Shown here: positions 2,555-56,386 of the stretch, one piece after another | Numbering within the stretch: the stretch's first letter is position 1 | Layout: the number at the start of each line of letters is the position of its first letter | Origin: Dehalococcoidia bacterium | GTDB lineage: Bacteria; Chloroflexota; Dehalococcoidia; Lucifugimonadales; JADFKI01 | NCBI GenBank assembly: GCA_963422525.1 | Contig: OY730226.1 | Span: 1,368,524-1,432,523 of the forward strand | DNA: 64,000 bases | Direction of reading: 5' to 3' | Made by a program: the position numbers and the translations under genes | Notes under the pieces: model-generated | Database searches by the model: none | Told to the model about the DNA's origin: nothing | Seen by the model: the letters and a program-made list of their open reading frames with translations, nothing else

Positions 2555-3937
2555 ATGGCGACTATCACTGAGAACGAAGCCCTGCGTAGATCTTCGCTCC
2601 AATACTTGTGGATGCACAACCGCGATTGGACGCAGATGGCGGAAGAGGGTGAGCCGCAGATTATAGAGAGCGGGCGGGGCGTGCGCGTTACGGACGCCGA
2701 AGGCAGGTCATGGATTGATGTCAATGGCGGGTATAACTCTGTGAATGTGGGGTATGGACGCACGGAGATTGGTGAAGTCGCGTATGAGCAGATGGTGAAT
2801 CTGCACTACTTTCCGCAAGGGACGACCACCGTTCCGATGGCGAATTTGGCGGCGAAGCTGGCGGAGATTACGCCGGGCAGCCTCTCGCGGGTGTTTCCGG
2901 TCAGCGGCGGTTCGGAGGCGAACGAAACGGCGCTGAAGATCGCCCGCGCCTATCACAAGAGGCGTGGCGAGCCGGGGCGGTATAAGGTTATAAGCCGCAT
3001 CGGTTCGTATCACGGGATGACGGCAGGGGTGATGTGGCTTGGGGGCAGCCCGTATCAGCCGCGCCACGACTATGAGCCGATATATCCGGGTATGGTGCAT
3101 GCGCCGCAGCCGAATCCGTACAGGTGCGCTCAGGGCGGCGAAACGCCATCCGAATGCGCCGTGCGCTGCGCCGAAGCCGTCGAGCGGCTGATTAAGTTTC
3201 ACGGGCCGCAGACGGTTGCTGCCGTAATAGCGGAGCCGGTCGCAATACCGCAGGGCGCAGTCGTGCCGGGCGCTGAGTACTTTCCGATGCTGCGGCAGAT
3301 TTGCGACAAGTACGGCGTTCTGCTCATTGCCGACGAGGTGATATGCGGCTTCGGGCGCACCGGCAGGATGTTCGCTTCTGAGCATTGGGATGTCGTGCCC
3401 GACATGATGACCGTGGCGAAGGGGATAGTCAGCAGCTATCTGCCTATGGCGGCGGCGATAGTGAAGCAGGAGGTCGCCGATGCGTTCGCAGGCGAGCGTA
3501 ACTTGTTGCGGCATGTGTTCACTACCGCGGGGCATCCTGTCGCGGCAGCCGCGTCGCTTAAGAACATAGAGATAATTGAGAATGAAGACCTCGTGGCTAA
3601 CTCTGCGCAGGTGGGGGCTTACTTTAAGGAGCAGCTCGAGGGTTTGGCGATAGACCATCCGCTCGTCGGCGATGTGCGCGGGTTGGGGTTGCTGCTGGCG
3701 GTGGAGCTTGTGAGCGACCGCGATACGAAGGCGGGCTTCGCTGCCGACGCCAAAGCGCCGGAGCGTTTGAACGAGAAGTTCAAGCGGCATGGCCTAATCT
3801 TCCGGATCAACAGCAATATCCTCAATATAGGGCCGCCGCTGTGCATCACGCGCGACGAAGTAGATGAAATCGTGCACGCCATAGACTTGTCGCTCTGGGA
3901 ACTCGAAGGCGAAATGGGCATCTCCCGAATGACCTAG
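2555..3937 (+). CDS. class-III (omega) aminotransferase
   Basis: 460 aa with family-typical blocks SGGSEANETALKIAR, LIADEVICGFGRTG and the PLP-lysine context MTVAKGI. Confidence 0.9.
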   Translation: MATITENEALRRSSLQYLWMHNRDWTQMAEEGEPQIIESGRGVRVTDAEGRSWIDVNGGYNSVNVGYGRTEIGEVAYEQMVNLHYFPQGTTTVPMANLAAKLAEITPGSLSRVFPVSGGSEANETALKIARAYHKRRGEPGRYKVISRIGSYHGMTAGVMWLGGSPYQPRHDYEPIYPGMVHAPQPNPYRCAQGGETPSECAVRCAEAVERLIKFHGPQTVAAVIAEPVAIPQGAVVPGAEYFPMLRQICDKYGVLLIADEVICGFGRTGRMFASEHWDVVPDMMTVAKGIVSSYLPMAAAIVKQEVADAFAGERNLLRHVFTTAGHPVAAAASLKNIEIIENEDLVANSAQVGAYFKEQLEGLAIDHPLVGDVRGLGLLLAVELVSDRDTKAGFAADAKAPERLNEKFKRHGLIFRINSNILNIGPPLCITRDEVDEIVHAIDLSLWELEGEMGISRMT

Positions 3938-4008
3938 CCGGCGGGGGCGGGCGCTGAACTAAAACCGTCCTGCGCATCCTTTCAGATTGCAGAATAACGG
4001 AGAACGAC

Positions 4009-5388
4009 ATGGCGACTATCGTGGAAGATAATGCGGCCGGGGATGCCGGCGCAGCTAGGCAGGCGGCGCTTGATCATCTGTGGATGCACAACGCCGACTG
4101 GGTAACGATGGCGGAGGAGGGTGGTCCAACCATCATGCGCAAGGGTGATGGCGTGCGGGTTACCGATGCGGAGGGCGAGACCTGGATTGACGCGCACGGC
4201 GGTTATGCATCGGTGAATGCCGGTTACGGCCGAACTGAGATTGCCGATGCAATGCTGGAGCAGATGCGGAAGCTGACCTACTTCCCGCAGGGGACGACTA
4301 CCGTTCCGCTTATTCGGCTTGTCGAGAAGGTGGGTGAACTTGCGCCGGGCAACCTGGAGCGTGTATGGCCTGTGAGCGGCGGTTCGGAGGCGAACGAAAC
4401 TGCGGTGAAGGTTGCTAGGGCGTATCACAAGCGGCGCGGCGATAACGGGCGCTACAAGATAATCAGCAGGCGTGGGTCGTATCATGGTGCGACGGCGGGC
4501 GTTATGTGGATGGGCGCAAGCTCCGGGATGAGCGATTACGAACCGGCGATGCCCGGCATGTTGTACGCGCCGCAGCCGAACCTTTACCGCTGCGAGTTCA
4601 ATAGCCGCACGCCTGAAGAGTGCGCCGAGCGGTCGGCGAAGGCAATCGAAGATTTGATTTTGCTGCATCATCCGGACACGGTGGCGGCAGTCATCGGTGA
4701 GCCGGTAGCGTCGGGATTGGCGCCCCCTGCCGTTGAATACTGGCAGATGGTACGGGACATTTGCGACCGTTACGGAGCGCTGCTCATCGCCGACGAGGTT
4801 GTTACGGGTTTTGGGCGCACGGGTAGGATGTTTGCTGTGGAGCATTACGGCGTTGTGCCTGACATTATGAGCGTCGCCAAGGGGATAACCAGCAGCTACC
4901 TGCCGCTTGCCGCCACGATTGTGGCGACTGATGTTGCTGACGCCTTCGCCGGCGAGGATAACATCTTCCGTCAGGCGCTGACTTTTGGCGGGCATCCGGT
5001 TACCGCTGCAGTCGCCATCAAGAATATCGAGATTATCGAGCGAGAGGGGTTGGTGGACAATGCTGCGCGCATGGGGGCGTACTTTCTGGAGCGGCTGCAT
5101 GAGTTGAAGGCGCAGCATCCTTCGATTGGCGATGTGCGCGGCATCGGCTTGCTGCTCGGCGTCGAGTTAGTTAGCGATCGCAAGACCAAAGCACCCTTCG
5201 ATGAAAATCTCCAGGTCAGCAATCGGCTGACCCGCAAAATGCACGATCGCGGCATCATCATGCGCTTCGGCGCTGATAAGGTTACGCTCGGCCCGCCGCT
5301 CTGTATAACGGCGGACGACATAGACCAAATCGTAGGCGCAATGGACAGCGCCATCGGCGAGCTGGAAGCTGAGCTGGCGCTTGTGTGA
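4009..5388 (+). CDS. class-III (omega) aminotransferase, tandem paralogue
   Basis: 459 aa, collinear with and highly similar to the preceding gene along its full length (SGGSEANETAVKVAR, LIADEVVTGFGRTG, MSVAKGI). Confidence 0.9.
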   Translation: MATIVEDNAAGDAGAARQAALDHLWMHNADWVTMAEEGGPTIMRKGDGVRVTDAEGETWIDAHGGYASVNAGYGRTEIADAMLEQMRKLTYFPQGTTTVPLIRLVEKVGELAPGNLERVWPVSGGSEANETAVKVARAYHKRRGDNGRYKIISRRGSYHGATAGVMWMGASSGMSDYEPAMPGMLYAPQPNLYRCEFNSRTPEECAERSAKAIEDLILLHHPDTVAAVIGEPVASGLAPPAVEYWQMVRDICDRYGALLIADEVVTGFGRTGRMFAVEHYGVVPDIMSVAKGITSSYLPLAATIVATDVADAFAGEDNIFRQALTFGGHPVTAAVAIKNIEIIEREGLVDNAARMGAYFLERLHELKAQHPSIGDVRGIGLLLGVELVSDRKTKAPFDENLQVSNRLTRKMHDRGIIMRFGADKVTLGPPLCITADDIDQIVGAMDSAIGELEAELALV

Positions 5389-5459
5389 TCAGATGGCGGT
5401 TGTGAAGGGGCGGAACGACCACCTCGCAAGTGTGACCGCCGGCGCGGCTGCTCTGTCTA

Positions 5460-5789
5460 TCGAGCGTTGCGAATGGGCAGTTTAGCGCTTCTGCCCAGTG
5501 CGACATGCCATGCGGGGCTGTTCAGAATGCGTCGAATCTGCCACACTCGTTTGGCGCAAGGCGCTAAGGGGAGCAGATCTATGTCGAGTTGCGGCCTGTT
5601 GGCGTGAGCGGCGGTTGCTTTTACAGGCGATATGTTGCCGTCGAGTTTTAGGCGGCGCGGAATGTTGGAGGCGTTCGCTGAAGCAAGTTTCGCGCTGACG
5701 AGGAAGTGCTCGGCGATGACGGACTTTGCCGACCTGCCGTCGTTGCTTGAATCGAGCAGCGCGGCAATGAGAGTGGATGCGTTGATTAC
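5460..5789 (-). pseudogene. possible decayed PIN-domain (VapC-like) toxin relic
   Basis: A 110-codon stop-free frame with no ATG/GTG/TTG anywhere, so it is absent from the ORF track. The translation VINASTLIAALLDSSNDG...LVSAKL...NISPVKATAA...LDIDLLPLAP...SPAWHVALGRSAKLPI follows the usual VapC block order. The expected acidic residues read N, A and P instead. Confidence 0.3.
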
Positions 5790-6046
5790 CGTGGTTGAAT
5801 GGCGATTTTATCTCAGTCCTAGCCTTTCCGTGTTAAAGGGATGGGACTTTAGCATCCAAAAGGGAACGCTATCTGTAGAGAACAATCACTTTCGCATCTG
5901 CGCCTCGTCTGCTATACTCATTCGGCTTGGGTCTGCGGAATATGCGACAGTCTTGGCGCGTCAGGCGGCTTGGTCCGGCGTCGCCAAATGAATGGCGGCA
6001 TTGCCATTTGAGCGGCTCGAGTGTACTTCAAATTGATGTGATATGA

Positions 6047-7357
<1,311 letters not shown>

Positions 7358-8082: not shown

Positions 8083-8991
8083 CTAATCGTCGCTTGCCAC
8101 GGCGACGGGCAGGTCGATGCTGTAGCGGGATACTACTGCATCTATTGATGCGGCTGTGTCTTCGTCGGGCGGTATGAGTGGGAGGCGCGGCTGCCCCACG
8201 CTGAAGCCTGCCTTGCCGACGCAATACTTGACAGGGATGGGGTTGGATACGATGAAGAGTATTTTGAAGATGTCGAACAGGCGCAGATGTTCGGCGGCTG
8301 CGCTTTCGATGTCGCCTTCGAGTATCATGCCAATCATAGCCTTGATTTGGCTGCCGACTAGATGTGATGCGACGCTCACGATGCCGTAGCCGCCGGCGCA
8401 CATGATGGGGAAGGTCTCATCGTCGTTGCCGCTCCACACTTTGAAATCGTCGTTGGCGTCGCGGATTATCTTCGTAATTTGCACGGGGTCACTGCTTGCC
8501 TCTTTGGTGCCCACGATGTTGTCTATATCGCTGAGGCGGAGGGTCGTTTCGGCGGTCATGTTGAGGCTGGTGCGGCTGGGGACGTTGTAGAGCACACAGG
8601 GTAGGCTGACGCTGCCTGCGATGGTCTTGAAGTGCTGGTAGAGGCCTTCTTGCGGCGGCTTGTTGTAAGACGGGACGGTCATCAGGATGCCGTCGACGCC
8701 GATTGCTTCGGCTTCCTTGCTCAGCGCCACGCCGTCGGCGGTGTTGTAGCCGGTTGTGCCGGCGATAATCGCTGCCCTGTCACCCACCGCGTTCTTCGTT
8801 GCTTCGTACATGCCGAGCTTCTCGTCGAATGAGAGCGTCGGGGTCTCGCCCGTCGTGCCGGTAACGACAAGCCCGTCGCTGCCTGAGTCCACAAGCGCAG
8901 TGGCGAGGCGTCCCGCCTCATCGTAGTCCACCGCGCCGTCTTCGTTAAAGGGAGTAATCATAGCGGTGATGAGTCTGCCTAGTTCGGCCAT
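8083..8991 (-). CDS. dapA: 4-hydroxy-tetrahydrodipicolinate synthase
   Basis: 302 aa. VVTGTTGETPTLS block and typical DapA length and order. Adjacent to asd and dapB. Confidence 0.95.
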   Translation of the reverse strand: MAELGRLITAMITPFNEDGAVDYDEAGRLATALVDSGSDGLVVTGTTGETPTLSFDEKLGMYEATKNAVGDRAAIIAGTTGYNTADGVALSKEAEAIGVDGILMTVPSYNKPPQEGLYQHFKTIAGSVSLPCVLYNVPSRTSLNMTAETTLRLSDIDNIVGTKEASSDPVQITKIIRDANDDFKVWSGNDDETFPIMCAGGYGIVSVASHLVGSQIKAMIGMILEGDIESAAAEHLRLFDIFKILFIVSNPIPVKYCVGKAGFSVGQPRLPLIPPDEDTAASIDAVVSRYSIDLPVAVASDD

Positions 8992-9184
8992 TGTTGAGCC
9001 TCCTTACTTAGGGCTTCACTGCGAGAGTTTTAAGTGTAAGGCAATAATCTGCGCCTTGCTTGGCGGTTGGCAGCGTGTGCGGTATCTTCGATACACACAG
9101 GAACGACATACGGATTTAGTTCTTCTGCCCTTCCTCTACTGGGGGGGAAGGTTGGGATGAGGGGACGGAACGCCGACGCCCTGT

Positions 9185-10237
9185 TTAGCCGCTCATCACT
9201 ACTTGCCTAGTCAGCAGGTTGCGCGCCAGCGCTTCTTCGGCAATTTGCAGGGCGTTTGTCGCGGCGCCTTTGCGCAGATTGTCGGTAACGACCCACATCG
9301 CTATGCCGTTGGGATGGGACACATCCTGCCGAATGCGTCCGACGAACACTTCGTCGCGTCCTGCGGCGTCGATGGGCATAGGATACACATTTTGTTGCGG
9401 GTCGTCCACCACATTCACGCCCGGGAACTCGCTGAGGATGTCGCGTACTTCCGAGGGGCTGATGGGATTATCGAATTCGATATGCAGCGCCTCGCTGTGG
9501 CTGAGCATCACCGGCACGCGCACGCATGTGGCCGACACGGCGATGTCGGGGTCATGGAGTATCTTTCGCGTCTCGTTGAGCATCTTCATCTCTTCGTTGG
9601 TGTAGCCGTTGTCTAGGAATGGCTCGATGTGTGGCAGGGCGTTGAACGCGATTGGATGCGGATAGGCGTCGTGCGTAAGGTCGCTGTGCGTAAGGTCTGC
9701 GTTGTTGGTCAGGCGTTTGGATTGCGTGCGCAGTTCCTCGACAGCTGCTGCGCCTGTGCCGGATACAGACTGGTATGTGTCGGCGATGACGCGCCTTACC
9801 GGATTGACCTCCATCAGCGGCTTGAGCACCATGACAAGGGGCGTGGTGGAGCAGTTGGGGATGGATACGATGCCGCTGTGGTCTTCGATGTCTGCGCCGT
9901 TGACCTCCGGCACGACCAGCGGCACATCGGCGTCCATGCGAAACGCAGAGCTGTCGTCGATGACGACTGCGCCTTGCCGTGCTGCTATGGGTGCGAGCGT
10001 GCGGCTGACATCGCCGCTCGCGGAGATGAATACGAAGTCGACCTCGCTGAAGAGCTGTGGCGTTGCCATCTCGACGGCAATTTCCTCGCCCATGCACTTG
10101 AGTTTCTTGCCGACAGAGCGCTCTGATGCGCACAGACGAATATCGGATACACGAAAGTTGCGCTCCTCAAGCACATCCAAGAACACGCGCCCGACTGCGC
10201 CCGTCGCGCCAACTACCGCAATGCTACAAGCGTCCAC
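9185..10237 (-). CDS. asd: aspartate-semialdehyde dehydrogenase
   Basis: Rossmann N-terminus VVGATGAVG and active-site Cys context IPNCSTTPLV. 350 aa. Confidence 0.95.
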   Translation of the reverse strand: MDACSIAVVGATGAVGRVFLDVLEERNFRVSDIRLCASERSVGKKLKCMGEEIAVEMATPQLFSEVDFVFISASGDVSRTLAPIAARQGAVVIDDSSAFRMDADVPLVVPEVNGADIEDHSGIVSIPNCSTTPLVMVLKPLMEVNPVRRVIADTYQSVSGTGAAAVEELRTQSKRLTNNADLTHSDLTHDAYPHPIAFNALPHIEPFLDNGYTNEEMKMLNETRKILHDPDIAVSATCVRVPVMLSHSEALHIEFDNPISPSEVRDILSEFPGVNVVDDPQQNVYPMPIDAAGRDEVFVGRIRQDVSHPNGIAMWVVTDNLRKGAATNALQIAEEALARNLLTRQVVMSG

Positions 10238-16267: not shown

Positions 16268-16531
16268 CTACCTTCTCAGACCGAGCTTGGCGATAAGAGC
16301 CCTATAGCGGCCTACGTCTTCCCTGTTGAGGTATCGGAGTAATCTTCGGCGGCGGCCGACCATCTTCAAGAGGCCGCGGCGTGTGGACTCGTCGTGTTTA
16401 TGGATTCTGAGGTGTTGCGTGAGTTGGAGTATGCGAGTCGTGAGTACTGCTACCTGTAATTCGGTAGAGCCTGAGTCGTTCTCGTGGGTGCGATGCTCTG
16501 CGATGACGGCTTGCTTTTCAGCCTTGTTCAA
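16268..16531 (-). CDS. rpsO: 30S ribosomal protein S15
   Basis: 87 aa. [48 protein letters not shown] is a typical S15 sequence. Confidence 0.97.
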
Positions 16532-16698
16532 TCCCTTCTCCCGGGAGTTCCCCTGTCTTTACTTTATTATGATGTTCCTTTTTTCTCATCAGTCAGTGTA
16601 GCATAGGGCGATTGCTCGGCGCAACGAATTCGCTTATGTTGGGATTTTCGCCGCAACCCTATGGTTGCCGCAGCGCACGACGATGTCAGCCCTCATCG

Positions 16699-17619
16699 TT
16701 AGGTTGTCAGTGATGCTAGAAAATCGGTGACGGCGTTCTGGAAGCCGGCCGGACTATCGCCCATGACGAGATGGCCTGCGCCTTCTATGGTTGCTAGGCG
16801 GCTGTTGGGGATTGCGTCGTGCATCTTGTCGGCGGTGTCCATTGCGATGATGTCGCTTGCGCCGCCGCGCACCAGCAGGGTGGGGCATTGCAGCGATTCC
16901 AGATAGCCCCAGAGCCGCTTCTCGGTTTCGGCGTCGCTGCCCATCCGACGCCCGGGCGTGCGCAGCGCGCGGTCGTACTTCCAGGTCCACTTGCCGTTGG
17001 GCAATTCCTTGAGGTTGTGCATGATGCTGCCACGGACCTGCTGAGGATCGCGGCGCGGGTTGTACTTCAGCACGCGCTCGACGAAGGCGTCAATCGAGTC
17101 CAGCTCATCGTCCTGCTGCACGAAGCTGCGGATATTCTGCGTGCCTTGCTGCATGTTCTGCGGCGCGGCGTCAACGATGACCAGCGCTTTGACGCTGTTC
17201 GGGTTGTTCGCTGCGTATGTGAATGAGTTCCTGCCGCCCATCGAAAGTCCCATCAGGACGAAGTCGTTCAGCCCCAATTGCTGCACAACGCCTGAAATGT
17301 CTTGCTGCTGCGTTTCGGGCGAATAATCGCCGTCAGCGGCCCAGTCGCTGTCGCCGTGCCCGCGCTGGTCGAGCACGATGACGCGATATTCGTCGCTGAA
17401 CCCGAGCGCTACGAAGTCCCAGGAGTGGCATGTCTGGGCGAATCCGTGCAGCAGCAGCATAGGGGGATTGTCCGACTTGCCCCATTCGAGGTAATGGAAG
17501 CGCATTCCATTGGCATTGACGAATCTGTCTTGCGGCGCATTCTCATTGGCGAATTTGACGCCCATAGCTCGCGCCGCGTCGTATAGCGATAGCCCTTGCT
17601 GAACTGCCTGTGAACTCAA
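16699..17619 (-). CDS. alpha/beta-fold hydrolase
   Basis: LLLHGFAQTCHSWD oxyanion region and nucleophile elbow GLSMGG. C-terminal GAGHLV histidine context. Confidence 0.85.
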   Translation of the reverse strand: MSSQAVQQGLSLYDAARAMGVKFANENAPQDRFVNANGMRFHYLEWGKSDNPPMLLLHGFAQTCHSWDFVALGFSDEYRVIVLDQRGHGDSDWAADGDYSPETQQQDISGVVQQLGLNDFVLMGLSMGGRNSFTYAANNPNSVKALVIVDAAPQNMQQGTQNIRSFVQQDDELDSIDAFVERVLKYNPRRDPQQVRGSIMHNLKELPNGKWTWKYDRALRTPGRRMGSDAETEKRLWGYLESLQCPTLLVRGGASDIIAMDTADKMHDAIPNSRLATIEGAGHLVMGDSPAGFQNAVTDFLASLTT

Positions 17620-19233: not shown

Positions 19234-20088
19234 CTAATTCACGGTGCGCCGATAATGCCCTCTCTTGATGAACTCGACAAGCCCTAATTCGCGCAGTTTT
19301 TGGAGTTGTTCGCTTAATTTCTGGCGAACATATCGGTTGTTTGGGTATTCCGCGGTCGCCATTGGGCTGCATACATCATACAACTCTTGAATGTCGAACT
19401 CGCTTTCCCTCATTTCCAGAACTCCACGCAATGTAAGCCTGAGCCAACCTTTGAAGCCTGACAATAAACCACTCTCACTAGATATTGAGAATGTTACATC
19501 GTTCATTGAGGTGTCTTCATCCTTATTTATAGCGTTGTCGCCTCTTTGTGGAGGCTTGGGCGTAGATACTCTGATAGCATCTAATGGAACTCGCAAGGCT
19601 TCCAACTCGTTCCTTCCGACTTTGCAGGGTGGCTTTCTCGCACCTAACCCTCGCAATAAGGAATGAGCGAGCCTTTGTATTAACTGCTTGTCCCTGATGC
19701 CTATGCCACATTCCAGATTGCGATACATGCCGCCGTAAGTGGCGTTTGCCGATGTAACTAGCGCGGAATCGTCATCAAAGACATATATTTTGGCGTGTAA
19801 GTTAGATAGGCTGCGGATGTTCACGCCGTCTTTTGCCAGAGCGCATAGGCTGTTGAGATCTGATGAGCCCATGGCGAAGTCTCGTAAATCTGTCTTCGTA
19901 ATGAGTGTGCGCGATGCTTCATTTGAGACGTCTTTGCTCAAATTCAAAATCGCATTGTTGACATATGGGCATCCAATCAGCAGGCGGGAATGGCAAGTCT
20001 TTGCGCGTCCGACAAGCCAATTGAAGGTTGGCGTAGTAACAATTTCTAATGCATTGTTGTTCATGTCCATCAAGCAATTCACAGACAA
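19234..20088 (-). CDS. single-HKD phospholipase-D-family nuclease with C-terminal winged-helix-like domain
   Basis: One HxK-x4-D-x6-(T)SxN motif: HAKIYVFDDDSALVTSAN (nt about 19741-19806). C-terminal EYPNNRYVRQKLSEQLQKLRELGLVEFIKRGHYR. The gene is clearly AT-richer than both neighbours. The start is uncertain: TTG at 20088, or ATG at 20070 or 20064. Confidence 0.75.
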   Translation of the reverse strand: MSVNCLMDMNNNALEIVTTPTFNWLVGRAKTCHSRLLIGCPYVNNAILNLSKDVSNEASRTLITKTDLRDFAMGSSDLNSLCALAKDGVNIRSLSNLHAKIYVFDDDSALVTSANATYGGMYRNLECGIGIRDKQLIQRLAHSLLRGLGARKPPCKVGRNELEALRVPLDAIRVSTPKPPQRGDNAINKDEDTSMNDVTFSISSESGLLSGFKGWLRLTLRGVLEMRESEFDIQELYDVCSPMATAEYPNNRYVRQKLSEQLQKLRELGLVEFIKRGHYRRTVN

Positions 20089-48723: not shown

Positions 48724-49806
48724 CTAGTCCTGCCCTCGTATCAGCGCCTCGCACAAATGCGCCGTGTCCACCAACTCCGGTATGACTACATATTCCCTGA
48801 CCGTATGCATGCCATGGTCCGCCATGCCCACCACCACAGCGCTCATCCCTCTCAGCCGGAATACATTGCCGTCGGTGCCTCCGCCCGAAGGTCGAAAGTC
48901 CGGCTCCAGTCCCAACCCGCGCAGCGCGCCGGTAACTCGCGCCGTGGCAGCATCGTCATCGTTCAGTGTGTAAGTCTCAAACTCGGTGTGCAGATGGTCA
49001 TCAAGCTTTGCTTCGGGGAACATCTGCCGCACATCATCCAACGCCTCCGAAATTTGCACGCGGATGTCGTCGAGCGTCTCTATGTTGCGGCTTCGAAACT
49101 CGCCTTGAATGATTGTCGTCTCTGCGACGGTGTTGCGAACCGAACCGCCCTCGATTGTGCCGACATTAAAGGTCGTTTCTTCGTCGAGCCGTCCTTGCGG
49201 CAGCCTCGTTATCAGCTCCGCGGCTATGCGTATCGCCGACAGCCCCTTCTCCGGCTCGACGCCGGCGTGGGCTGATCGCCCGGTAACTTCGATGTTGAAG
49301 CCGATGTATGTCGGGCTTGACGATGTAATCTGCGACACCGGTCCCTCACCGTCAAACACGATGGCTTCCTTAGCTGTGAGCATCGAGAAGTCGAGGTTGC
49401 GGGCGCCCACAAGCCCGATCTCTTCCTCGCGTGTGAACGCGACCTCGATGCCCGTATGCGCCACGCCATCTTCATGCACGGATTCCAGCGCCTCCAGGAT
49501 GGCAGCGACGCCGCACTTGCAGTCGCCGCCGAGTATCGTCGTGCCGTCGGATTCGATGCGGTCGCCCGATACTCTGGGCTGTACGCCGCGTCCCGGCTCC
49601 ACCGTGTCCATGTGCGCCGACAGCAGCAGCGGATCCGCCCCGCCGTCGTTGGCTATCAAGTTGCCATAAGCGTCACGCCGCACGGTAAAGCCCAAATCTT
49701 CAAGACGGCGCGTCAAGTCCTGCGCCATCGTCTCCTCTTCTCCCGAAGGGCTGTCAATCCGCGCAAGTTCTGTGAATGTCCTCACCAATCGGTCCCTGTT
49801 TATCAT
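48724..49806 (-). CDS. M20/M25/M40-family metallopeptidase
   Basis: MINRDRLVRTFTELARIDSPSGEE, AHMDTVEPG metal-ligand block, GGDCKCG. The ATG at 49806 follows TAGGAGAAG; the track start at 49884 is less likely. Confidence 0.85.
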   Translation of the reverse strand: MINRDRLVRTFTELARIDSPSGEEETMAQDLTRRLEDLGFTVRRDAYGNLIANDGGADPLLLSAHMDTVEPGRGVQPRVSGDRIESDGTTILGGDCKCGVAAILEALESVHEDGVAHTGIEVAFTREEEIGLVGARNLDFSMLTAKEAIVFDGEGPVSQITSSSPTYIGFNIEVTGRSAHAGVEPEKGLSAIRIAAELITRLPQGRLDEETTFNVGTIEGGSVRNTVAETTIIQGEFRSRNIETLDDIRVQISEALDDVRQMFPEAKLDDHLHTEFETYTLNDDDAATARVTGALRGLGLEPDFRPSGGGTDGNVFRLRGMSAVVVGMADHGMHTVREYVVIPELVDTAHLCEALIRGQD

Positions 49807-49895
49807 CGCTTCTCCTAAGTATCTCTTGCTCCCGCTCATAGTCTTGCTAGCTTTGCTCGTAAAATCGCCTTTGTCACAAAGCATAAAGCGTAGCC

Positions 49896-52800
49896 CTACT
49901 CTGACAGCGTTAGATGGTTGCCGTCCCGCTTAATCCGCTCATCCTCGAGCATACGGTCTAAAATCTCCCCTAGTTTGTAGTCAATATAACCAGTAACCCT
50001 GCGAAAACCCAGCAGATTAGCGGCATTCCTTATCGCTTCTTCACGGTCAATCCCAAAAGAACGCTCCACAACCATCCGCACGGCTTCGGCGATTTCTTCA
50101 GGTGAGATATACTCAATATTCTTTCGTTCCCGCTCAAGGTTGCTTCTGTCGCGCACGAGCGGCCGTTCCATATCGTTAGCCCATATGAAGTACCCCTTAC
50201 GGATTACCTGTTTGCGGCGCACGGCATCCTCAATTGCCCAGTATATCTTCCCTTGAATCTTTGTGCCGACTCTTGCTACACCTGCTGCGTTAGCGATGCG
50301 TCGGATGACCTCATCATCCTGCACCGGACTTTCTACGCGCACCACCTCAATGACGGGTTCGATTAGCCATTCGACAGGCGCGTCACCAAGTTCATAGGAG
50401 CCGATATGGACATTCGGCTGCGCCAACCGATAAAGAGGAATATCGGGAACAAAGCTTTCTTGCTTGACATCCGCGCGCGAAATAACCGACTCGTTCGGTA
50501 TAGGCTTTGCAGATGATTTGCCAGCGTTCTGCCGCGATGTCAACGCATCTTCTATCGCCGCCGTCGCGCGTTTCAATTCGCGCTCCGGGTTGTTGAACCA
50601 GTCGGTACTCCAGACGCGGTGTATCCGCCATCCCAGCTTCACCAGCGCCTTCTCTCTGATTCTGTCGCGGTCGCGCGCCGACCGCGAACTGTGATAGGTT
50701 GCGCCATCGCACTCGATACCTAAAACATACCTGCCCGGTCGCTTAGGGTCCACTACGCCAATATCAACGAAGTACCTGCTTGAAGCCACCTCATCGTGAA
50801 TTTCGTACCCATGCGAACGCAGTCTGCTGGCAACCTCTATCTGGAATGGCGAATTTACCTCCCGCCCTGACATCATGGGCATATCGGGCATTTCGCCCTG
50901 CTCCGCATACGCTAGAAACTTCTTGAAGGCGCGCAAGCCATGTCCACTATTCACGGTCACCCTGATGTCATCGGCGTGAAGGTTAGTGAACACATGGCAG
51001 CGTCGCTTTGCTCTGCTGATGAGCACATTAAGACGTCTCTCGCCGCCATCCCTGATGAGCGGGCCGAAGTTTTGCAATACACGCCCATCGGCATTGCGCC
51101 CGTATCCCACACTAATGAAGATGACATCGCGCTCGTCGCCCTGCACATTCTCCAGATTCTTTATGAAGAAAGGTTCGTTCGGATGGTCGTCGTTGAAGAA
51201 TTGTTCGAGAGCGTTGTCTTGGCGTCTAAGCGCCTCTAGCGCGTCCTGCACCTCATCCCGTTGGCTGCTGCTGAATGTGGCAACTCCCAGAGACAACTTC
51301 GGATGCTGGCGAGCATGCCTCATAACCGCCTCTGCCACCTGTTGGGCTTCCTCTCGGTTTCTTCCGCTGCCGCCGTACTTGGTATCCAGATAGTGATACT
51401 GCAACCCTAAATCATGCTTTTCTTTGTCCGGGCTGGGAAATACTACCAGACGATTATCGTAGAATTCGCTGTTGGATACCGCAATTAATGACTCATGGCG
51501 GCTGCGATAGTGCCAGCGCAGCATACTTGAGGGAGCCCCCTGTGCGGAGAACAAGCTCAGAATGCTTTCCATATCTGCGGTCGCAGCGTCGTCGCTGTCA
51601 TCATCTTGGTTGACTGCATTGAAGAAGTCGGTGGGAGGTAATTGCTTATCATCGCCCACCACAACCGCCTGTTTGCCGCGAATCAGCGCGCCCAGCGCAT
51701 CCACAGGCTTCACTTGGCTTGCCTCATCGAACACCACTATATCGAACTTGACGCTGCCAAGCTTCAGATATGTCGCTACCGAAAGCGGGCTCATCATAAA
51801 TACAGGCTTGATTGCTTGTACGGCATTTCCTGCTCGTTCCATCAACTGTCGTATGGAAAGATGCCGCCGCCGCTTCGCAATCTCCCTCCTTAGAATACCT
51901 AGCTGCCCTCCACCGCCGTACTTAGGCAGCGACTCCCAATGGACATGACTGACCCTTGTGCGGTTGTTCGCCAGCGCCAACTCATCCATCTCGCGGAACT
52001 TATCAATTATTTGCTGGTGAAAATCGCCGTTGAAGCCTACTAGACAGTCTCTTTCCTTAAGCGCGCGGGACAGTATGGCGCTGTAACGCGCCTTTTCAAA
52101 GCACGCTGATAGATACTCGGACGCTTCTGGCCATTCCCAAGCCAAATCTACAACCTCAGCCATATCCTCATCCACGACATTAGACGCGGCGGCGTTAAAC
52201 CCTGCCATGTCGCGAATTGTGTTGACACCACTTTGCCATTCTGCAATAACACCCTTTTGCCTCATAAATGGCATGGCGTTCAGCCCGTCGGGATTGCCGA
52301 ACTGCTTTGAGTTATCTATTTTCAGCAAGGTTTCAAGATTAGCGATATGCTCTGCATGAGATGCGCGGGCGGATTGCGCCTGCTTCCGAAAATCATTCAC
52401 TTTGCTGGCGTTAATCTTATCGCTCATATCGAAAGCGAGCGTAGAATCGACATTTCCGTTATCAACATCCTCAAGCAGCGCAAGCGCCCACTCAGCGATG
52501 CGCTCTACGGCTTTCCAGTCCGAGCCTTTCCAGCCTGAATATTCGAATTGCCACTTCTGGCCAAAGACTTCTTTTGCGGTTGGCGATAGCTTCGCTACAT
52601 TCCGTCGCGTTTGCTGTTCGTCCAGTATTGCCTCGGCAAGCGCTATCTGTCGTTCGATATTCGTATCGGAGCATTCGATTTTGATGATGGCGCGATAATT
52701 TGACAAAGCGTCGAGTGTCTGAATACGAAGGGTATTTACCCTAGCAGGGTCCCACTCAGCGCTCATATCGAAAGCGAGCGTAGAATCGACGCTTCCGTTG

Positions 52801-55289
52801 TCAACATCTTCAAGCAGCGCAAGCGCCCACTCAGCGATGCGCTCTATGGCTTTCCAGTCCGAGCCTTTCCAGTCTGAATATTCGAATTGCCACTTCTGGC
52901 CAAAAACCTCTTTTGCGGTCGGCGATAGCGTCGCTATATTCTGTCGCGTTTGCTGTTCCGCGAATATTGCCTCGGCAAGCGCTATCTGTCTTTCAACATT
53001 GAAAGCCTGTTCGCCATGACACAAGTCCATCATCTGCTTCCTAGAGTGGCGGTATCCGGAAGAAAAGAGCCTTCCCCAAAAGCTGCGTCCGGTTGTAGAA
53101 AGTATGCGATGCGCTTCGCTCACATCAGCTTCCCAAGCGTCCGGCTTGAGCGCCGCATCGTATTTGGAATGGAGTTGTTCCAGGTGTTCCTGATAGCTCA
53201 GCAATTTCTGTAACTCACGGCGACAGCCGTGTGACTTTAGCGCTCTCAGATTGACGCCTTCGATGTTAGGCGCTTGTGCGGCGCGTTCAGCGAGGGGAAG
53301 TATCGCTTCGACCTGCCTGATGTCCTCGGGCGCGTCCAACCCTAACGCCTCGCTGAGTGCGCGCGCTAGCTCCGCTATAGTATTTAACGCCCCAACATCT
53401 CCTGGTGGAGCATACCAATAAAGAGCTGCTAATTGATTCCTAGCGCAGAGATATTTGGGAGAAATGAGACTTCTCCAAAGAACGCTCTCAGTGTTGGAAA
53501 GTATGCGATGCGCTTCGCTCACATCAGCTTCCCAAGCGTCCGGCTTGAGCGCCGCATCATATTTTTTGGAATGGAGTTGTTCCAGGTGTTCCTGATAGCT
53601 CAGCAATTTCTGTAACTCACGGCGACAGCCGTGTGACTTTAGCGCTCTCAGATTGACGCCCTCGATGTTAGGCGCTTGTGCGGCGCGTTCAGCGAGGGGA
53701 AGTATCGCTTCGACCTGCCTGATGTCCTCGGGCGCGTCCAACCCTAACGCCTCGCTGAGGTGACGAGCGGCATCTTTCAATGTATCAATAGATACTGCGG
53801 CAGCGGTGAGCCCTTCGCGCAAATCTTCCTCTTGTTCGGGCGTTACTAATCGCAGCTGCGAACCCCGAAACATGTGCTCCTTTGGAACACCTACACTGCC
53901 CAAAAGCGTTTGAATCTCGGACACCGCGCCCATTTTCCGCTGAAAGTCTGCGTTCGCCCAAGAAGCGATATTTGGTATCTGCACACGGGGCAGACGTACA
54001 CCATTTTCGTCTGCTTCAATTCTGCTGAGTTCGCCATATGTACGATAGGGGGACACACCCGTGTCTCCCACCGGCGTATTCACCGCTGCCGCATACCTGT
54101 TCAGCCTGTCCCGATGCTCCGTAAGGGTAATGAAATCATCTTCGATACCCTCCATACTCGGCTTACCCAGCTCAAGCGTTTTTCCCAGATCGTCTATAAC
54201 TGCCTTCTTTTGCGTCTTATGGCTGTGCAATTCAAGGCAGGCAACACCAATGCCGATGCCGTCAAGCCTGCGTTTCACCACCTCCAGCGCTGCCATCTTC
54301 TCCGCAACGAAAAGCACGGTCTTTCCTTGCCCGATACTCTCCGCAATGATGTTCGTGATCGTCTGAGATTTGCCTGTGCCAGGCGGCCCCTGAATGACCA
54401 TGTTGCGCCCGCTGTCCACATCGTGTATCGCCTTCGCCTGCGACGAATCGGCATCCACGACGTGGTGCGCATCATCAGGCTTGAGATGATCGTCAAGAAA
54501 GTCGCCTTCGCCAATCTCTGAGGGCGCTTCTTGGAATCCACCCTCTAGCAGGGCGTGAATGATGTGATTTCCCGGCAGACCTCCGTTTTCAGGCCAGGAA
54601 TTAGGGTCCAAGTCTCTGTACATCAGTAGCTTGTTGAACGAAAAGAAGCCTAGAACTACGCTGTTGTAGTCAACAGCCCAGCGTTTCATCCCCTTTATGC
54701 TGCGTGAAACATCAGTGAAGTAGGCATCAATATCTATATCTTCCGCATCAGCCTCCTCTTCATCCGCCAATCCGGGAATCTCAATGCCAAAATCCTGACG
54801 AGCTTTCTGAATGAACGCTATGTTCGCCCCCAATTCTTCACCGGTGTACATAACCTTGAACCCGGCGTTAGCATTATCCCGCTCAAGCCGGACAGGAACC
54901 AAGATGAGTGGCGCTTTACGCTCCTGCTCGCTGGAATCGGACTCATACCAACTCACCATTCCTAGCGCCATGAACAAGGTGTTGACGCCCTGCTCCTGAA
55001 TCAGCGTATTGGCGTCATAGTAGGTTCTGAGAAGACGGCGTCCTAATTGAGCAGAAGTTTCTGCGGTGCGGATGCGGTTATTTCTGCTGGACTTAGACTC
55101 AACATCAAGAAACTGCATCGGTGGATTATTCCGGAGGAGCGTCTCGAAAATCTTGACAGGCTTAGCCCCCACGGCCTCGACGCCCTTAGCCTTTAACAGC
55201 TTGTAATTCAGCAGACGATTCCGAAGGCTCAAGTCTAGCAATTCTGTTCTTGAACGCTCAATCTTCTCTTTGATGGAGTCGGTCGTCAT
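49896..55289 (-). CDS. giant DUF4011-like / Upf1-like SF1 helicase / Vsr(MTES_1575)-like endonuclease / DUF3320-like fusion protein
   Basis: - N-terminus: ELLDLSLRNRLLNY and KAPLILVPVRLER (DUF4011-like).
- Walker A GPPGTGKS (nt 54366-54389).
- About 875 aa of insertion.
- Walker B VVFDEASQ (about 51714-51737), then VVVGDDKQLPP, QGDERDVIFIS and RLNVLISRAKRR.
- Nuclease fold: YVLGIECDGATYHSSRSARDRDRIREKALVKLGWRIHRVWSTDW.
- A ~300-aa tail.
- I prefer the ATG at 55289 (GGAAGGAG 8 nt upstream) over the track start at 55424. Confidence 0.9.
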   Translation of the reverse strand: MTTDSIKEKIERSRTELLDLSLRNRLLNYKLLKAKGVEAVGAKPVKIFETLLRNNPPMQFLDVESKSSRNNRIRTAETSAQLGRRLLRTYYDANTLIQEQGVNTLFMALGMVSWYESDSSEQERKAPLILVPVRLERDNANAGFKVMYTGEELGANIAFIQKARQDFGIEIPGLADEEEADAEDIDIDAYFTDVSRSIKGMKRWAVDYNSVVLGFFSFNKLLMYRDLDPNSWPENGGLPGNHIIHALLEGGFQEAPSEIGEGDFLDDHLKPDDAHHVVDADSSQAKAIHDVDSGRNMVIQGPPGTGKSQTITNIIAESIGQGKTVLFVAEKMAALEVVKRRLDGIGIGVACLELHSHKTQKKAVIDDLGKTLELGKPSMEGIEDDFITLTEHRDRLNRYAAAVNTPVGDTGVSPYRTYGELSRIEADENGVRLPRVQIPNIASWANADFQRKMGAVSEIQTLLGSVGVPKEHMFRGSQLRLVTPEQEEDLREGLTAAAVSIDTLKDAARHLSEALGLDAPEDIRQVEAILPLAERAAQAPNIEGVNLRALKSHGCRRELQKLLSYQEHLEQLHSKKYDAALKPDAWEADVSEAHRILSNTESVLWRSLISPKYLCARNQLAALYWYAPPGDVGALNTIAELARALSEALGLDAPEDIRQVEAILPLAERAAQAPNIEGVNLRALKSHGCRRELQKLLSYQEHLEQLHSKYDAALKPDAWEADVSEAHRILSTTGRSFWGRLFSSGYRHSRKQMMDLCHGEQAFNVERQIALAEAIFAEQQTRQNIATLSPTAKEVFGQKWQFEYSDWKGSDWKAIERIAEWALALLEDVDNGSVDSTLAFDMSAEWDPARVNTLRIQTLDALSNYRAIIKIECSDTNIERQIALAEAILDEQQTRRNVAKLSPTAKEVFGQKWQFEYSGWKGSDWKAVERIAEWALALLEDVDNGNVDSTLAFDMSDKINASKVNDFRKQAQSARASHAEHIANLETLLKIDNSKQFGNPDGLNAMPFMRQKGVIAEWQSGVNTIRDMAGFNAAASNVVDEDMAEVVDLAWEWPEASEYLSACFEKARYSAILSRALKERDCLVGFNGDFHQQIIDKFREMDELALANNRTRVSHVHWESLPKYGGGGQLGILRREIAKRRRHLSIRQLMERAGNAVQAIKPVFMMSPLSVATYLKLGSVKFDIVVFDEASQVKPVDALGALIRGKQAVVVGDDKQLPPTDFFNAVNQDDDSDDAATADMESILSLFSAQGAPSSMLRWHYRSRHESLIAVSNSEFYDNRLVVFPSPDKEKHDLGLQYHYLDTKYGGSGRNREEAQQVAEAVMRHARQHPKLSLGVATFSSSQRDEVQDALEALRRQDNALEQFFNDDHPNEPFFIKNLENVQGDERDVIFISVGYGRNADGRVLQNFGPLIRDGGERRLNVLISRAKRRCHVFTNLHADDIRVTVNSGHGLRAFKKFLAYAEQGEMPDMPMMSGREVNSPFQIEVASRLRSHGYEIHDEVASSRYFVDIGVVDPKRPGRYVLGIECDGATYHSSRSARDRDRIREKALVKLGWRIHRVWSTDWFNNPERELKRATAAIEDALTSRQNAGKSSAKPIPNESVISRADVKQESFVPDIPLYRLAQPNVHIGSYELGDAPVEWLIEPVIEVVRVESPVQDDEVIRRIANAAGVARVGTKIQGKIYWAIEDAVRRKQVIRKGYFIWANDMERPLVRDRSNLERERKNIEYISPEEIAEAVRMVVERSFGIDREEAIRNAANLLGFRRVTGYIDYKLGEILDRMLEDERIKRDGNHLTLSE
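52421..53000. repeat. intragenic tandem duplication B within the helicase gene (two 241-bp cores, ~92% identical)
   Basis: 52421-52661 versus 52760-53000, period 339 nt (113 codons). About 19 mismatches in my manual alignment. Confidence 0.9.
53098..53759. repeat. intragenic tandem duplication A within the helicase gene (two ~260-bp cores, ~99% identical)
   Basis: 53098-53357 versus 53497-53759. My manual alignment finds 2 substitutions and one 3-nt indel. The offsets of 399 and 402 nt are both multiples of 3. Confidence 0.9.
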
Positions 55290-55621
55290 AAGCCCCGCTC
55301 CTTCCATCCTGTCCAATATACGCTCCGGCATGTTCGTTCGTGGTGAGCCTGTTCTGAGCTTGTCAAAAGGGAGCCGTCGAACCTGATAGCATTCCCTTTT
55401 TAGGCGGTAAAGCCGTCCCTCCACCCTTGATAAGGGAAGGCCTGGATTGAGGATGACTTGCTATTCAACCACCCGATTCGCAACCCTATCATCAAATCGC
55501 CCAGTATCATAAATCCTGCCCATCCATGTTAATCTCAGATATTGTATTTTGTACAGACGGCGTGTCAAGGGTTGGAACTTCACGCCGCTACGGGTTAAAC
55601 TACACCCAGCGTAGATGAGGT

Positions 55622-56386
55622 ATGGCAATGACCCTTCAGGCTGAACAACAATACACTACGATGATCCGCGATCTGCCCCAGGACGAGCGACCGCGCGAGC
55701 GTCTCCAGCGATACGGCCCCAACCATCTGAGCAACGCCGAACTTATCGCTATCCTGCTGCGCGTGGGATCGACCGGCGAGAGCGTGCTGAACCTGTCGGC
55801 GCGAGTCCTTGCCACCTATGGCGGTCTTGGCGGCGTGGCGCGCGCCTCACACGGCGAATTATGTGACCTGCATGGCATCAGCGACGCCAAGGCATGCCAA
55901 ATTTTGGCGGCGCTCGAGCTTGGACGGCGTCTCACATCGCTCCAACCCGAAGACAGAGCGGTAATTCGCTCGCCCCAAGATGTATTCAACCTACTCGGCG
56001 CCGAAATGGGCTTCCTCGATCAAGAACATCTTCGCGTGTTGCTGCTGAACACCAAGAACGAAGTGCTGGCAACCCACGAGATTTACAAAGGCAACGTAAA
56101 CTCGGCGGTGGTGCGCGTCGCAGAAGTGATTCGCCCCGCCATCAGAGCGAACTGCCCCAATATCATCGTAGTGCACAATCACCCTTCCGGCGACCCAACT
56201 CCAAGCCCGGAGGACATTCTGGTAACGCGCCAAATTAACACATGCGCCGATATGATGAGCATCAAACTACTCGACCATGTTGTAATAGGCAACCAGCGAT
56301 TTGTCAGCCTCAAGGAAAGAGGGCTAGGATTTAGCGGCGACGCTCCCGCTAACATTGATATTGGCTTGGCAGCAGAAAGAAAGTAG
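55622..56386 (+). CDS. radC: RadC-family JAB/MPN-domain protein
   Basis: UPF0758 N-terminus ([33 protein letters not shown]) and JAMM motif [14 protein letters not shown]. Confidence 0.9.

Follow-up and report, generated by a model that had tools for sequence, protein, structure and literature searches.

The stretch of DNA analysed here, referred to below as the window, comprises 64,000 nucleotides of contig OY730226.1 from a Dehalococcoidia bacterium. Its minus strand carries a giant gene, which encodes a helicase and a nuclease in a single polypeptide and lies between radC and the gene pair formed by an M20 peptidase and larA. As pointed out in a preliminary description of the sequence, this gene is not co-oriented with radC: it is divergent from it and has the same orientation as M20-larA. 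The same description placed the gene at 49896-55424. A single minus-strand open reading frame (ORF) does span 49896..55424, with 1842 codons counted from a GTG, but its start had to be moved to the ATG at 55289 on the basis of the N-termini of homologues, of a ribosome-binding site and of the overlap with a 119-nt indel. This ATG corresponds to M46 of the longer ORF (MTTDSIKEK...) and is preceded by the ribosome-binding site GGAAGGAG. The close homologues P0001-P0010 begin with MTT(D/E)SI... at the matching position, and a comparison of N-termini found no close homologue carrying the 45 upstream codons, which most likely form a 5' untranslated region (5' UTR) and not coding sequence. The corrected gene (49896..55289, minus strand, stop codon included) encodes a protein of 1797 amino acids (aa). 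Its features are collected in Table 1.

Table 1. Features of the giant gene, of the inserted segment that carries it and of the flanking genes (window coordinates).
Feature	Position	Strand	Basis or remark
Inserted segment, single-gene islet between radC and M20	49817..55537	.	blastn against relatives L001-L008
Sigma-70-like promoter TTGACA-16-TACAAT	55541..55568	-	11/12 consensus matches; predicted function
119-nt indel in 5' UTR	55372..55490	-	Present in the window, missing in strain L081 (98-99% identical)
Upstream 45 codons of the longer ORF	55290..55424	-	No homologue has the extension; overlaps the 119-nt indel
DUF4011 N-terminal domain (aa 16-162)	54804..55244	-	Pfam PF13195, E = 5.3e-37
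RecA1, N-terminal part	54249..54449	-	Pfam AAA_11/AAA_19/AAA_30
Walker A GPPGTGKS (aa 301-308)	54366-54389	-	Invariant among 70 aligned sequences
All-helical insertion in RecA1 (aa 424-1082, ~660 aa)	52044..54020	-	Repeats and AF2 model
Module A1	53391-53792	-	Insertion repeat
Module A2	52992-53390	-	Insertion repeat
Module B1	52662-53003	-	Insertion repeat
Module B2	52320-52664	-	Insertion repeat
RecA1, C-terminal part, with motif III VVVGDDKQLPPT	51630..51791	-	Pfam AAA_11 profile positions 198-253; invariant columns
Walker B VFDEASQ	51714-51734	-	aa 1188-1192 region of the corrected protein
RecA2 (AAA_12), motifs V (VQGDERD) and VI (RRLNVLISRAKRR)	50982..51566	-	Pfam PF13087; PDB matches IGHMBP2, Sen1
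MTES_1575/Vsr-like PD-(D/E)xK nuclease	50553..50846	-	Pfam PF18741, 116 bits vs 38.2
DUF3320 region and C-terminal tail	49899..50375	-	Pfam PF11784
M20 peptidase gene, corrected start	48724..49806	-	Pfam; first gene after the insert, paired with larA
radC	55622..56386	+	Pfam RadC and UPF0758_N; divergent neighbour across the insertion site

The four modules initially described were recovered by Pfam in the same order, all above the curated cutoffs: DUF4011 (127.7 bits), the two helicase domains AAA_11 (65.9 bits) and AAA_12 (52.7 bits; cutoff of 27 bits for both), the Vsr-type nuclease MTES_1575 (PF18741, 116 bits for a cutoff of 38.2) and DUF3320 (40.8 bits). The AAA_11 match is split in two, one part bearing Walker A and the other Walker B. 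Every motif quoted in that description is present in the ORF, namely ELLDLSLRNRLLNY, KAPLILVPVRLER, GPPGTGKS, VVFDEASQ, QGDERDVIFIS, RLNVLISRAKRR, IECDGATYH, RDRDR and WRIHRVWSTDW. With AAA_11 and AAA_12 above their cutoffs and motifs I, II, III, V and VI intact, the motor is that of a superfamily 1B (SF1B) helicase, and the assignment to the Upf1-like group is borne out by its closest solved relatives, IGHMBP2 and Sen1. These are the best PDB sequence matches (E = 1e-7 to 1e-9), through the motor alone, and no solved structure of a close relative was found. The nuclease motifs are GIECDG (E1526, D1528), ATYH, RDRDR and VWSTDW. In an alignment of 70 homologues, all the helicase and nuclease motifs are invariant or near-invariant, the near-invariant columns of the nuclease being E, D, G, Y, H, RDR and WSTDW. 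Judged by their motifs, the Upf1-like SF1 ATPase/translocase and the Vsr-like PD-(D/E)xK nuclease are both intact, and a DUF3320 tail completes the same protein.

The AlphaFold2 (AF2) model of the DUF4011 region (aa 1-300, window 54390-55289; predicted local distance difference test, pLDDT, 75.7) has the layout alpha-beta-beta-beta-alpha-alpha-beta, for which Foldseek returned no significant fold match in PDB or BFVD. The residues conserved in its strands are Pro, Arg and Trp instead of acidic residues, so that an active PD-(D/E)xK nuclease is unlikely for this modelled domain. At the opposite end, the DUF3320 tail is predicted to form winged-helix DNA-binding repeats; DUF3320 overlaps two winged helix-turn-helix (wHTH) domains (PMC3710099, Anantharaman et al. 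2013). The tail is dispensable in part of the family, since eight close relatives of ~1260-1365 aa (P0031, P0046, P0056, P0057, P0061, P0066, P0069 and P0113), with identities of 64-70% in the C-terminal block, are devoid of it.

The preliminary description had considered the protein as uncharacterised and its architecture as having no known function. This is not the case: the architecture is that of Hhe, and both a PADLOC model for a phage-defence candidate, PDC-S37, and an NCBIfam equivalog model, ProA, already exist for proteins of this kind. Nine PADLOC families matched the window protein with E <= 0.01. The match to PDC-S37 (PDLC05009) reaches 1877 bits (E = 0) in three stretches, the best one covering positions 640-1544 of 1550, and is a match at the level of the profile. 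The giant gene stands alone, no partner gene accompanying it in the insert. Hhe (PDLC02194) scored well under PDC-S37, with 748.7 bits, and the matches to MkoA and MkoC of Mokosh are at the helicase level only. In NCBIfam, the equivalog cutoffs are 1500 bits for ProA (NF058533, 'anti-phage protein ProA') and 2000 bits for Hhe (NF042953). The clade of the window protein falls on both sides of the ProA cutoff: P0003, which occupies the same genomic site in another genome, and P0012 pass it with 1513.3 and 1521.8 bits (Hhe, 1016.2 and 1016), P0005 lies just under it with 1487.6 bits (Hhe, 1014.7) and P0004 stays below with 1456.8 bits (Hhe, 1010.7). The ProA profile (1903 positions) is matched by the window protein in two stretches, an N-terminal one and the best one at 961-1903, the alignment being broken by duplicated modules.

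A comparison was also made with an Hhe of 1911 aa from a Klebsiella plasmid, annotated by the Prokaryotic Genome Annotation Pipeline (PGAP) as 'DUF4011 domain-containing anti-phage protein Hhe'. BLASTP aligned it collinearly with the window protein in two blocks, aa 67-423 (39% identity) and aa 1083-1667 (41%). The GIECDG motif containing E1526 aligns with GIECDG of this Hhe, and E1526 would be equivalent to E1731 of the E. coli Hhe, as suggested by the position of the motif and not by the E. coli sequence itself. Because the large insertion is dissimilar and the Hhe score is 1021 for a cutoff of 2000, the window protein, as judged by profile and alignment, is of the ProA/PDC-S37 type, a sister subfamily of Hhe and not its orthologue. 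The literature searched yielded neither a source publication for the names ProA or PDC-S37 nor a mechanistic or structural study of HheA.

The distribution of the gene in related genomes, a comparison suggested earlier, was followed through its M20 neighbour. The scan for the M20 peptidase in species-representative genomes returned 80 loci, all from SAR202/Dehalococcoidia, which identifies the host as a marine SAR202 bacterium. A marine Synechococcus, which Ni-SOD, the cobA-hemD fusion and rplL without rpoB might have suggested, was rejected because the flanking genes match SAR202/Dehalococcoidia at 82-86%. By tblastn, the giant protein is found in none of these 80 SAR202 loci of 21 kb around M20. 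In 18-19 of the 80, radC lies within ~310 bp of M20; these include the eight closest relatives (L001-L008), where M20 is 82-86% identical to that of the window and radC adjoins it. Blastn against these eight genomes placed the junctions at window 55538 (locus ~10002) and window 49816 (locus ~10033), the left edge of the insert being uncertain by ~20 nt. The empty relatives possess ~30 nt at the site, versus 5721 nt in the window. The lower GC content reported initially was also measured: 0.527 for the whole gene and 0.577 at third codon positions (GC3), versus 0.587 +/- 0.027 and 0.700 +/- 0.044 for the other 38 long ORFs of the window, that is ~2.2 and ~2.8 standard deviations under the mean. 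The AT-richer island of about 5.5 kb is indeed compositionally deviant and holds a single gene; the insert measures 5.7 kb. With the gene absent near M20 in 80 relatives, the junctions mapped and GC and GC3 deviant, the giant gene arrived as a 5.7-kb single-gene insert, acquired horizontally.

The 5.7 kb of the insert contain no integrase or transposase gene, and no inverted repeats were found; the junctions show no target-site duplication, no terminal inverted repeats and no shared direct or inverted repeat >8 nt. Nothing at the insert thus marks it as a transposon or as an integrative island, and it holds no partner gene, antitoxin-like partner or addiction module. In another SAR202 genome (L041, 7720-9995), the same gap between radC and M20 harbours a small, secreted, hypothetical protein besides an IS630-like transposase in two frames (8484-9708), and repeated insertions are therefore accepted at this spot.

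The gene occupies the same site on two metagenome contigs. On the first (L081), the giant protein is 97% identical and the flanking proteins 97-100% identical to those of the window. In the second (L082), P0003 is an intact protein of 1804 aa, 64% identical, with flanks of 69-93% identity; the empty genomes have flanks just as near to the window. Directly after the promoter, the window and L082 share homologous sequence, which favours a shared insertion history over independent hits; either an old insertion followed by losses, or the spread of an allele by flank recombination between relatives, remain as scenarios. Between the window and L081, the ratio of nonsynonymous to synonymous substitution rates (dN/dS) is 0.47 for the giant gene, versus 0.12 for M20, 0.03 for hemB and 0.12 for panE (small counts). 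This value, well <1, indicates purifying selection: the gene is constrained, yet its protein changes faster than those of the flanking genes.

The insert lies in the leader of the M20-larA operon, as can be deduced from the conservation of the promoter, of the AGGAGA ribosome-binding site and of the M20 start on either side of it. The real start of M20 is the ATG at 49806 and not position 49884; the start ATGATAAAC and its AGGAGA are conserved with L001. The hexamers of the sigma-70-like promoter are invariant in the seven of seven SAR202 genomes aligned, whether the insert is present or not, and the insert is placed between this promoter and the M20 ribosome-binding site. We infer that this promoter, now upstream of the inserted gene, ancestrally served M20-larA. 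The giant gene would be transcribed from it, and M20-larA would now be read through, no terminator-like site lying between the giant-gene stop and the M20 start. The 5' UTR folds no better than shuffled sequence (z = 0.88). Its 119-nt segment at 55372-55490 occurs only once in the window, is not repeated among the loci fetched and gave neither an Rfam match nor a significant fold. A match to the archaeal C/D-box small RNA sR28 of Rfam over the M20 start (49756-49810, minus strand; 26.1 bits for a gathering threshold of 39) was taken as chance.

Homologues of the giant gene were located in other genomes. P0008 (58% identical; L083) has as neighbours integrase fragments and genes for GmrSD, AbiEi, PIN, Uma2 and a methylase of the Eco57I type. 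P0012 (L086) is found beside a PglX-like methylase, PLD-SNF2, PIN, Mrr-ResIII and transposase genes. Elsewhere, then, homologues are found in integrase, restriction and BREX-like islands, an association that is frequent, not universal. In IMG/VR, 35 loci were confirmed on viral contigs, and ~12 relatives are 30-46% identical over most of the query. A tblastn search of PLSDB found homologues in 552 plasmid records, 220 of them conjugative, including the Klebsiella plasmids with an annotated Hhe. A further SAR202 genome (L085) carries P0023, 50% identical, at an unrelated locus. About 3 kb upstream of it, with two unrelated genes between, the same genome has a set of three genes (3053-7101) encoding a DEAD/ResIII helicase, a HATPase_c_3 (MORC-like) ATPase and a PLD nuclease, which resembles a defence system.

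The long insertion that separates Walker A from Walker B had been described as unusual. Estimated initially at about 875 aa, it is present in the corrected protein, with a gap of 880 aa from Walker A (residue 301) to Walker B (residue 1188), but its length is no peculiarity. It is a trait of the family: the insertion type was found in 497 50%-identity clusters out of 1.84 billion representatives, at a constant position and always in family proteins, and that of Hhe is of similar size. Its structure was predicted, as had been advised. The AF2 model of aa 270-1450 (mean pLDDT 78, with a poorly predicted RecA2 part) presents the insertion as all-helical at pLDDT ~80-95, and a Foldseek search of the helicase and insertion against the PDB gave only coiled-coil/SMC-like noise, with TM scores of 0.05-0.09 and no meaningful neighbour. 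A segment-wise search revealed protein repeats that a plain self-BLASTP had hidden: two types of units, A (~133 aa) and B (~110 aa), follow one another in the order A1-A2-B1-B2.

The number of these modules was determined in the 120 best homologues and the window protein. The 1A1B architecture is found in 51 proteins of ~1540-1600 aa, which fits the 1550-position profile of PDC-S37, and 2A2B in 43 proteins of ~1790-1930 aa, which fits the 1903-position profile of ProA; two proteins are 3A2B. Ranked by identity of the C-terminal block, the architectures are interleaved: P0004 (1A1B) 71%, P0009 (1A1B) 69%, P0002 (3A2B) 69%, P0003 (2A2B) 68% and P0113 (0A0B) 66%. In P0005, P0008, P0012 and P0013, the units cluster by position (A1 with A1, A2 with A2), which points to an old duplication. 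For the window protein and P0023, on the other hand, the two copies are mutually nearest, with 80% and 75% identity versus ~60% with orthologous units. In the DNA sequence, the A copies of the window are 90-100% identical over ~270 nt, then 27-67%, and its B copies 80-97% over ~240 nt, then 40-53%. The repeats of 91-97% identity include tracts of 97% and 91% that have sharp edges inside older, diverged repeats, and such tracts look like the product of gene conversion or partial re-duplication. An assembly artefact was ruled out, two independent assemblies sharing the repeats and the copies differing by 3-18%.

Taken together, these data suggest, with a probability of about 0.7, that the giant gene encodes a ProA/PDC-S37-type, Hhe-like single-polypeptide defence enzyme directed against phages or other mobile elements. 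The defence role proposed as a candidate in the preliminary description is thereby retained as the best reading, on the basis of the family, of the acquisition of the gene and of the context of its homologues. Hhe is reported to defend E. coli from lambda, T3, T7 and PhiV-1, and the E1731A substitution of its nuclease glutamate abolishes defence (10.1101/2022.06.16.496414, citing Gao et al. 2020). Several T7 genes of DNA metabolism score as Hhe triggers, and the toxicity of g40 of phage Bas63 depends on the presence of hhe (PMC11482910). A phage gene that counteracts hhe is also reported (10.1101/2024.04.14.589459). In the window, the giant gene would be transcribed constitutively from the captured promoter, and its protein would be held inactive by a sensing or autoinhibitory part, formed by DUF4011 and the helical A/B insertion. 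This part might then meet a product or a feature of phage DNA replication or processing; the helicase would translocate on DNA at the expense of ATP and bring along the C-terminal nuclease, which would cut DNA. Replication of the phage would thereby stop, be it through selective degradation of its DNA or through abortive infection, and the host might pay a price.

Several observations weigh against this interpretation. The window protein scores 1484.7 bits with ProA, 15 under the cutoff of 1500 (1485.5 with the GTG-extended ORF), and its 1020.8 bits with Hhe are far under 2000. Its insertion (aa 424-1082) has no BLASTP similarity to aa 572-1274 of Hhe, and trigger and mode of action may differ accordingly. 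The immediate neighbourhood consists of housekeeping genes throughout, with no defence island, and P0004 (1542 aa) lies among metabolic genes. All isolates of Pseudomonas aeruginosa possess a large DUF4011 gene, which belongs to the core genome and flanks the defence hotspot cDHS1 (PMC10250203); not every member of the family behaves as accessory cargo. Finally, we infer the defence activity and its mechanism in SAR202, for which Hhe provides by analogy the only experimental anchor, and likewise the sensing, substrate and polarity of the window protein.

A different function, in housekeeping genome maintenance, has also to be considered. The protein would then be a helicase-nuclease comparable to Dna2, Sen1 or IGHMBP2, acting on R-loops, stalled forks or mismatches and lying near radC for functional reasons; R-loop or replication-conflict processing had been held equally possible at the outset. 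Such a role would agree with the identity of the closest solved relatives, with the use of the Vsr-type fold in mismatch repair, with the core status of the P. aeruginosa gene (PMC10250203) and with the adjacency of radC and a housekeeping promoter. The adjacency of radC, however, is a by-product of the insertion site, radC adjoining M20 in the empty genomes. The pattern of presence and absence and the locations of homologues render this explanation unlikely: the gene is absent from this site in all 80 related genomes, the eight closest included, the homologues of other SAR202 genomes reside at unrelated loci, and members of the family occur on viral contigs and in islands of the restriction, Abi and BREX-like kinds. 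The deviant composition of the gene and a dN/dS at least four times that of the flanking genes point in the same direction.

The target of the enzyme could also be plasmids, mobile elements or incoming DNA rather than phages, or the gene could be a selfish one, kept by host toxicity upon its loss or activation. The many plasmid records, conjugative ones among them, the apparent host toxicity of activated Hhe (PMC11482910) and the single-gene unit free of partners are compatible with this proposal, which overlaps with the defence-enzyme reading and does not exclude it. It is nevertheless improbable, considering that the only experimental data on the family come from anti-phage assays and that the insert holds neither an antitoxin-like partner nor an addiction module. 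Last, the faster protein evolution (dN/dS of 0.47 versus 0.03-0.12 in the flanks), the unstable internal repeats and the ProA score slightly under threshold could betray a decayed or inert passenger, kept only by its position in the operon leader. Two strains, however, preserve the whole frame of 1797 codons, and a third genome has at this site an unbroken allele of 1804 aa with 64% identity; as the catalytic motifs are all kept and dN/dS is well <1, a passenger would be very surprising.

If the giant gene is, as favoured here, a ProA/PDC-S37-type defence enzyme, its helical insertion might be an evolvable specificity module. This suggestion is tentative and more doubtful than probable; it is prompted by the copy number that shifts among close relatives, by the apparent homogenisation of copies by gene conversion in some lineages, this one included, and by the lack of likeness to the insertion of Hhe. 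Should it be true, the gain, loss and conversion of modules would be the way in which ProA/PDC-S37-type proteins retune their sensing, and promoter capture in a housekeeping leader would keep single-gene immunity constitutive in genomes devoid of defence islands, such as those of SAR202. The labile A/B modules are the region most worth examining for how Hhe/ProA proteins sense infection.

The remaining genes of the neighbourhood are housekeeping genes. Downstream of the giant gene, M20 and larA are followed by rplA, rplJ and rplL, the latter without rpoB in the window. On the other side, radC precedes cupin genes, panE, the Ni-SOD gene, hemB and cobA-hemD, fused in the window. In L082, cobA and hemD are separate genes, a ParE-toxin gene pair is present near Ni-SOD and an acetyltransferase gene between M20 and larA (5178-6018 and 16510-17151), and the neighbourhood is therefore more plastic than first appears. 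Elsewhere in the window, an ORF of 284 aa (19234-20088, minus strand), located between amidase and MFS transporter genes, has the lowest GC content (0.469; GC3 0.519). Its product has a nuclease domain of the PLD family and, at the C-terminus, a DpnI-type domain for binding methylated DNA (PLD-DpnI_C); its PADLOC matches are to DrmC-like PLD models and to the C-terminus of mREase_II. The gene resembles another isolated defence insert made of a single gene and may encode a methyl-directed restriction enzyme.

SAR202 is an abundant, uncultured lineage of the deep ocean, and to our knowledge its defence against phages is essentially unstudied. The present analysis places the ProA/Hhe-like family in this lineage, and the annotation of the giant gene should reflect this catalogued anti-phage family. 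It also provides an example of defence cargo carried as an isolated single-gene insert and wired to a housekeeping promoter, outside of any defence island. The promoter-capture insertion, the conversion-prone A/B modules and the lack of a structural neighbour for DUF4011 and the insertion are modestly interesting leads.

Several known systems can be compared with the giant protein. The Upf1-like SF1B helicases IGHMBP2, Sen1/SETX and Dna2 resemble it in the AAA_11/AAA_12 motor only; DUF4011, DUF3320, the helical A/B insertion and the Vsr-like nuclease at the C-terminus are missing from all of them, even if Dna2, too, has a nuclease joined to its SF1B motor. Nhi and Hna combine a motor and a nuclease in one polypeptide against phage DNA. 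Their domain order and nuclease family differ from those of the window protein and none of their PADLOC models matched it at E <= 0.01; the parallel drawn with Nhi in the preliminary description may be kept as an analogy only. In the MTES_1575 protein of Microbacterium testaceum (PMC3710099), a Vsr-family restriction endonuclease and two wHTH domains over DUF3320 are combined with an SF1 helicase, as here, together with HEPN and transglutaminase domains that Pfam did not detect in the window protein. Hhe (HheA, Gao et al. 2020) is closer, with the same order of DUF4011, split SF1 helicase and Vsr-like nuclease, a single-gene organisation in both cases and a common IECDG, which probably contains the glutamate changed in E1731A. 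The resemblance is greatest with ProA/PDC-S37, which has the same domain order over the full length and shares the A/B-type helical insertion; the ProA cutoff is exceeded by relatives with an overall identity of 51-64% (61-68% for the conserved C-terminal block), while the window protein itself, with 1797 aa, a 2A2B architecture and a SAR202 host, compares with profile lengths of 1903 (ProA) and 1550 (PDC-S37). What is known is thus the architecture, as a catalogued single-gene anti-phage family, and what is new is a member of this family in the SAR202 lineage.

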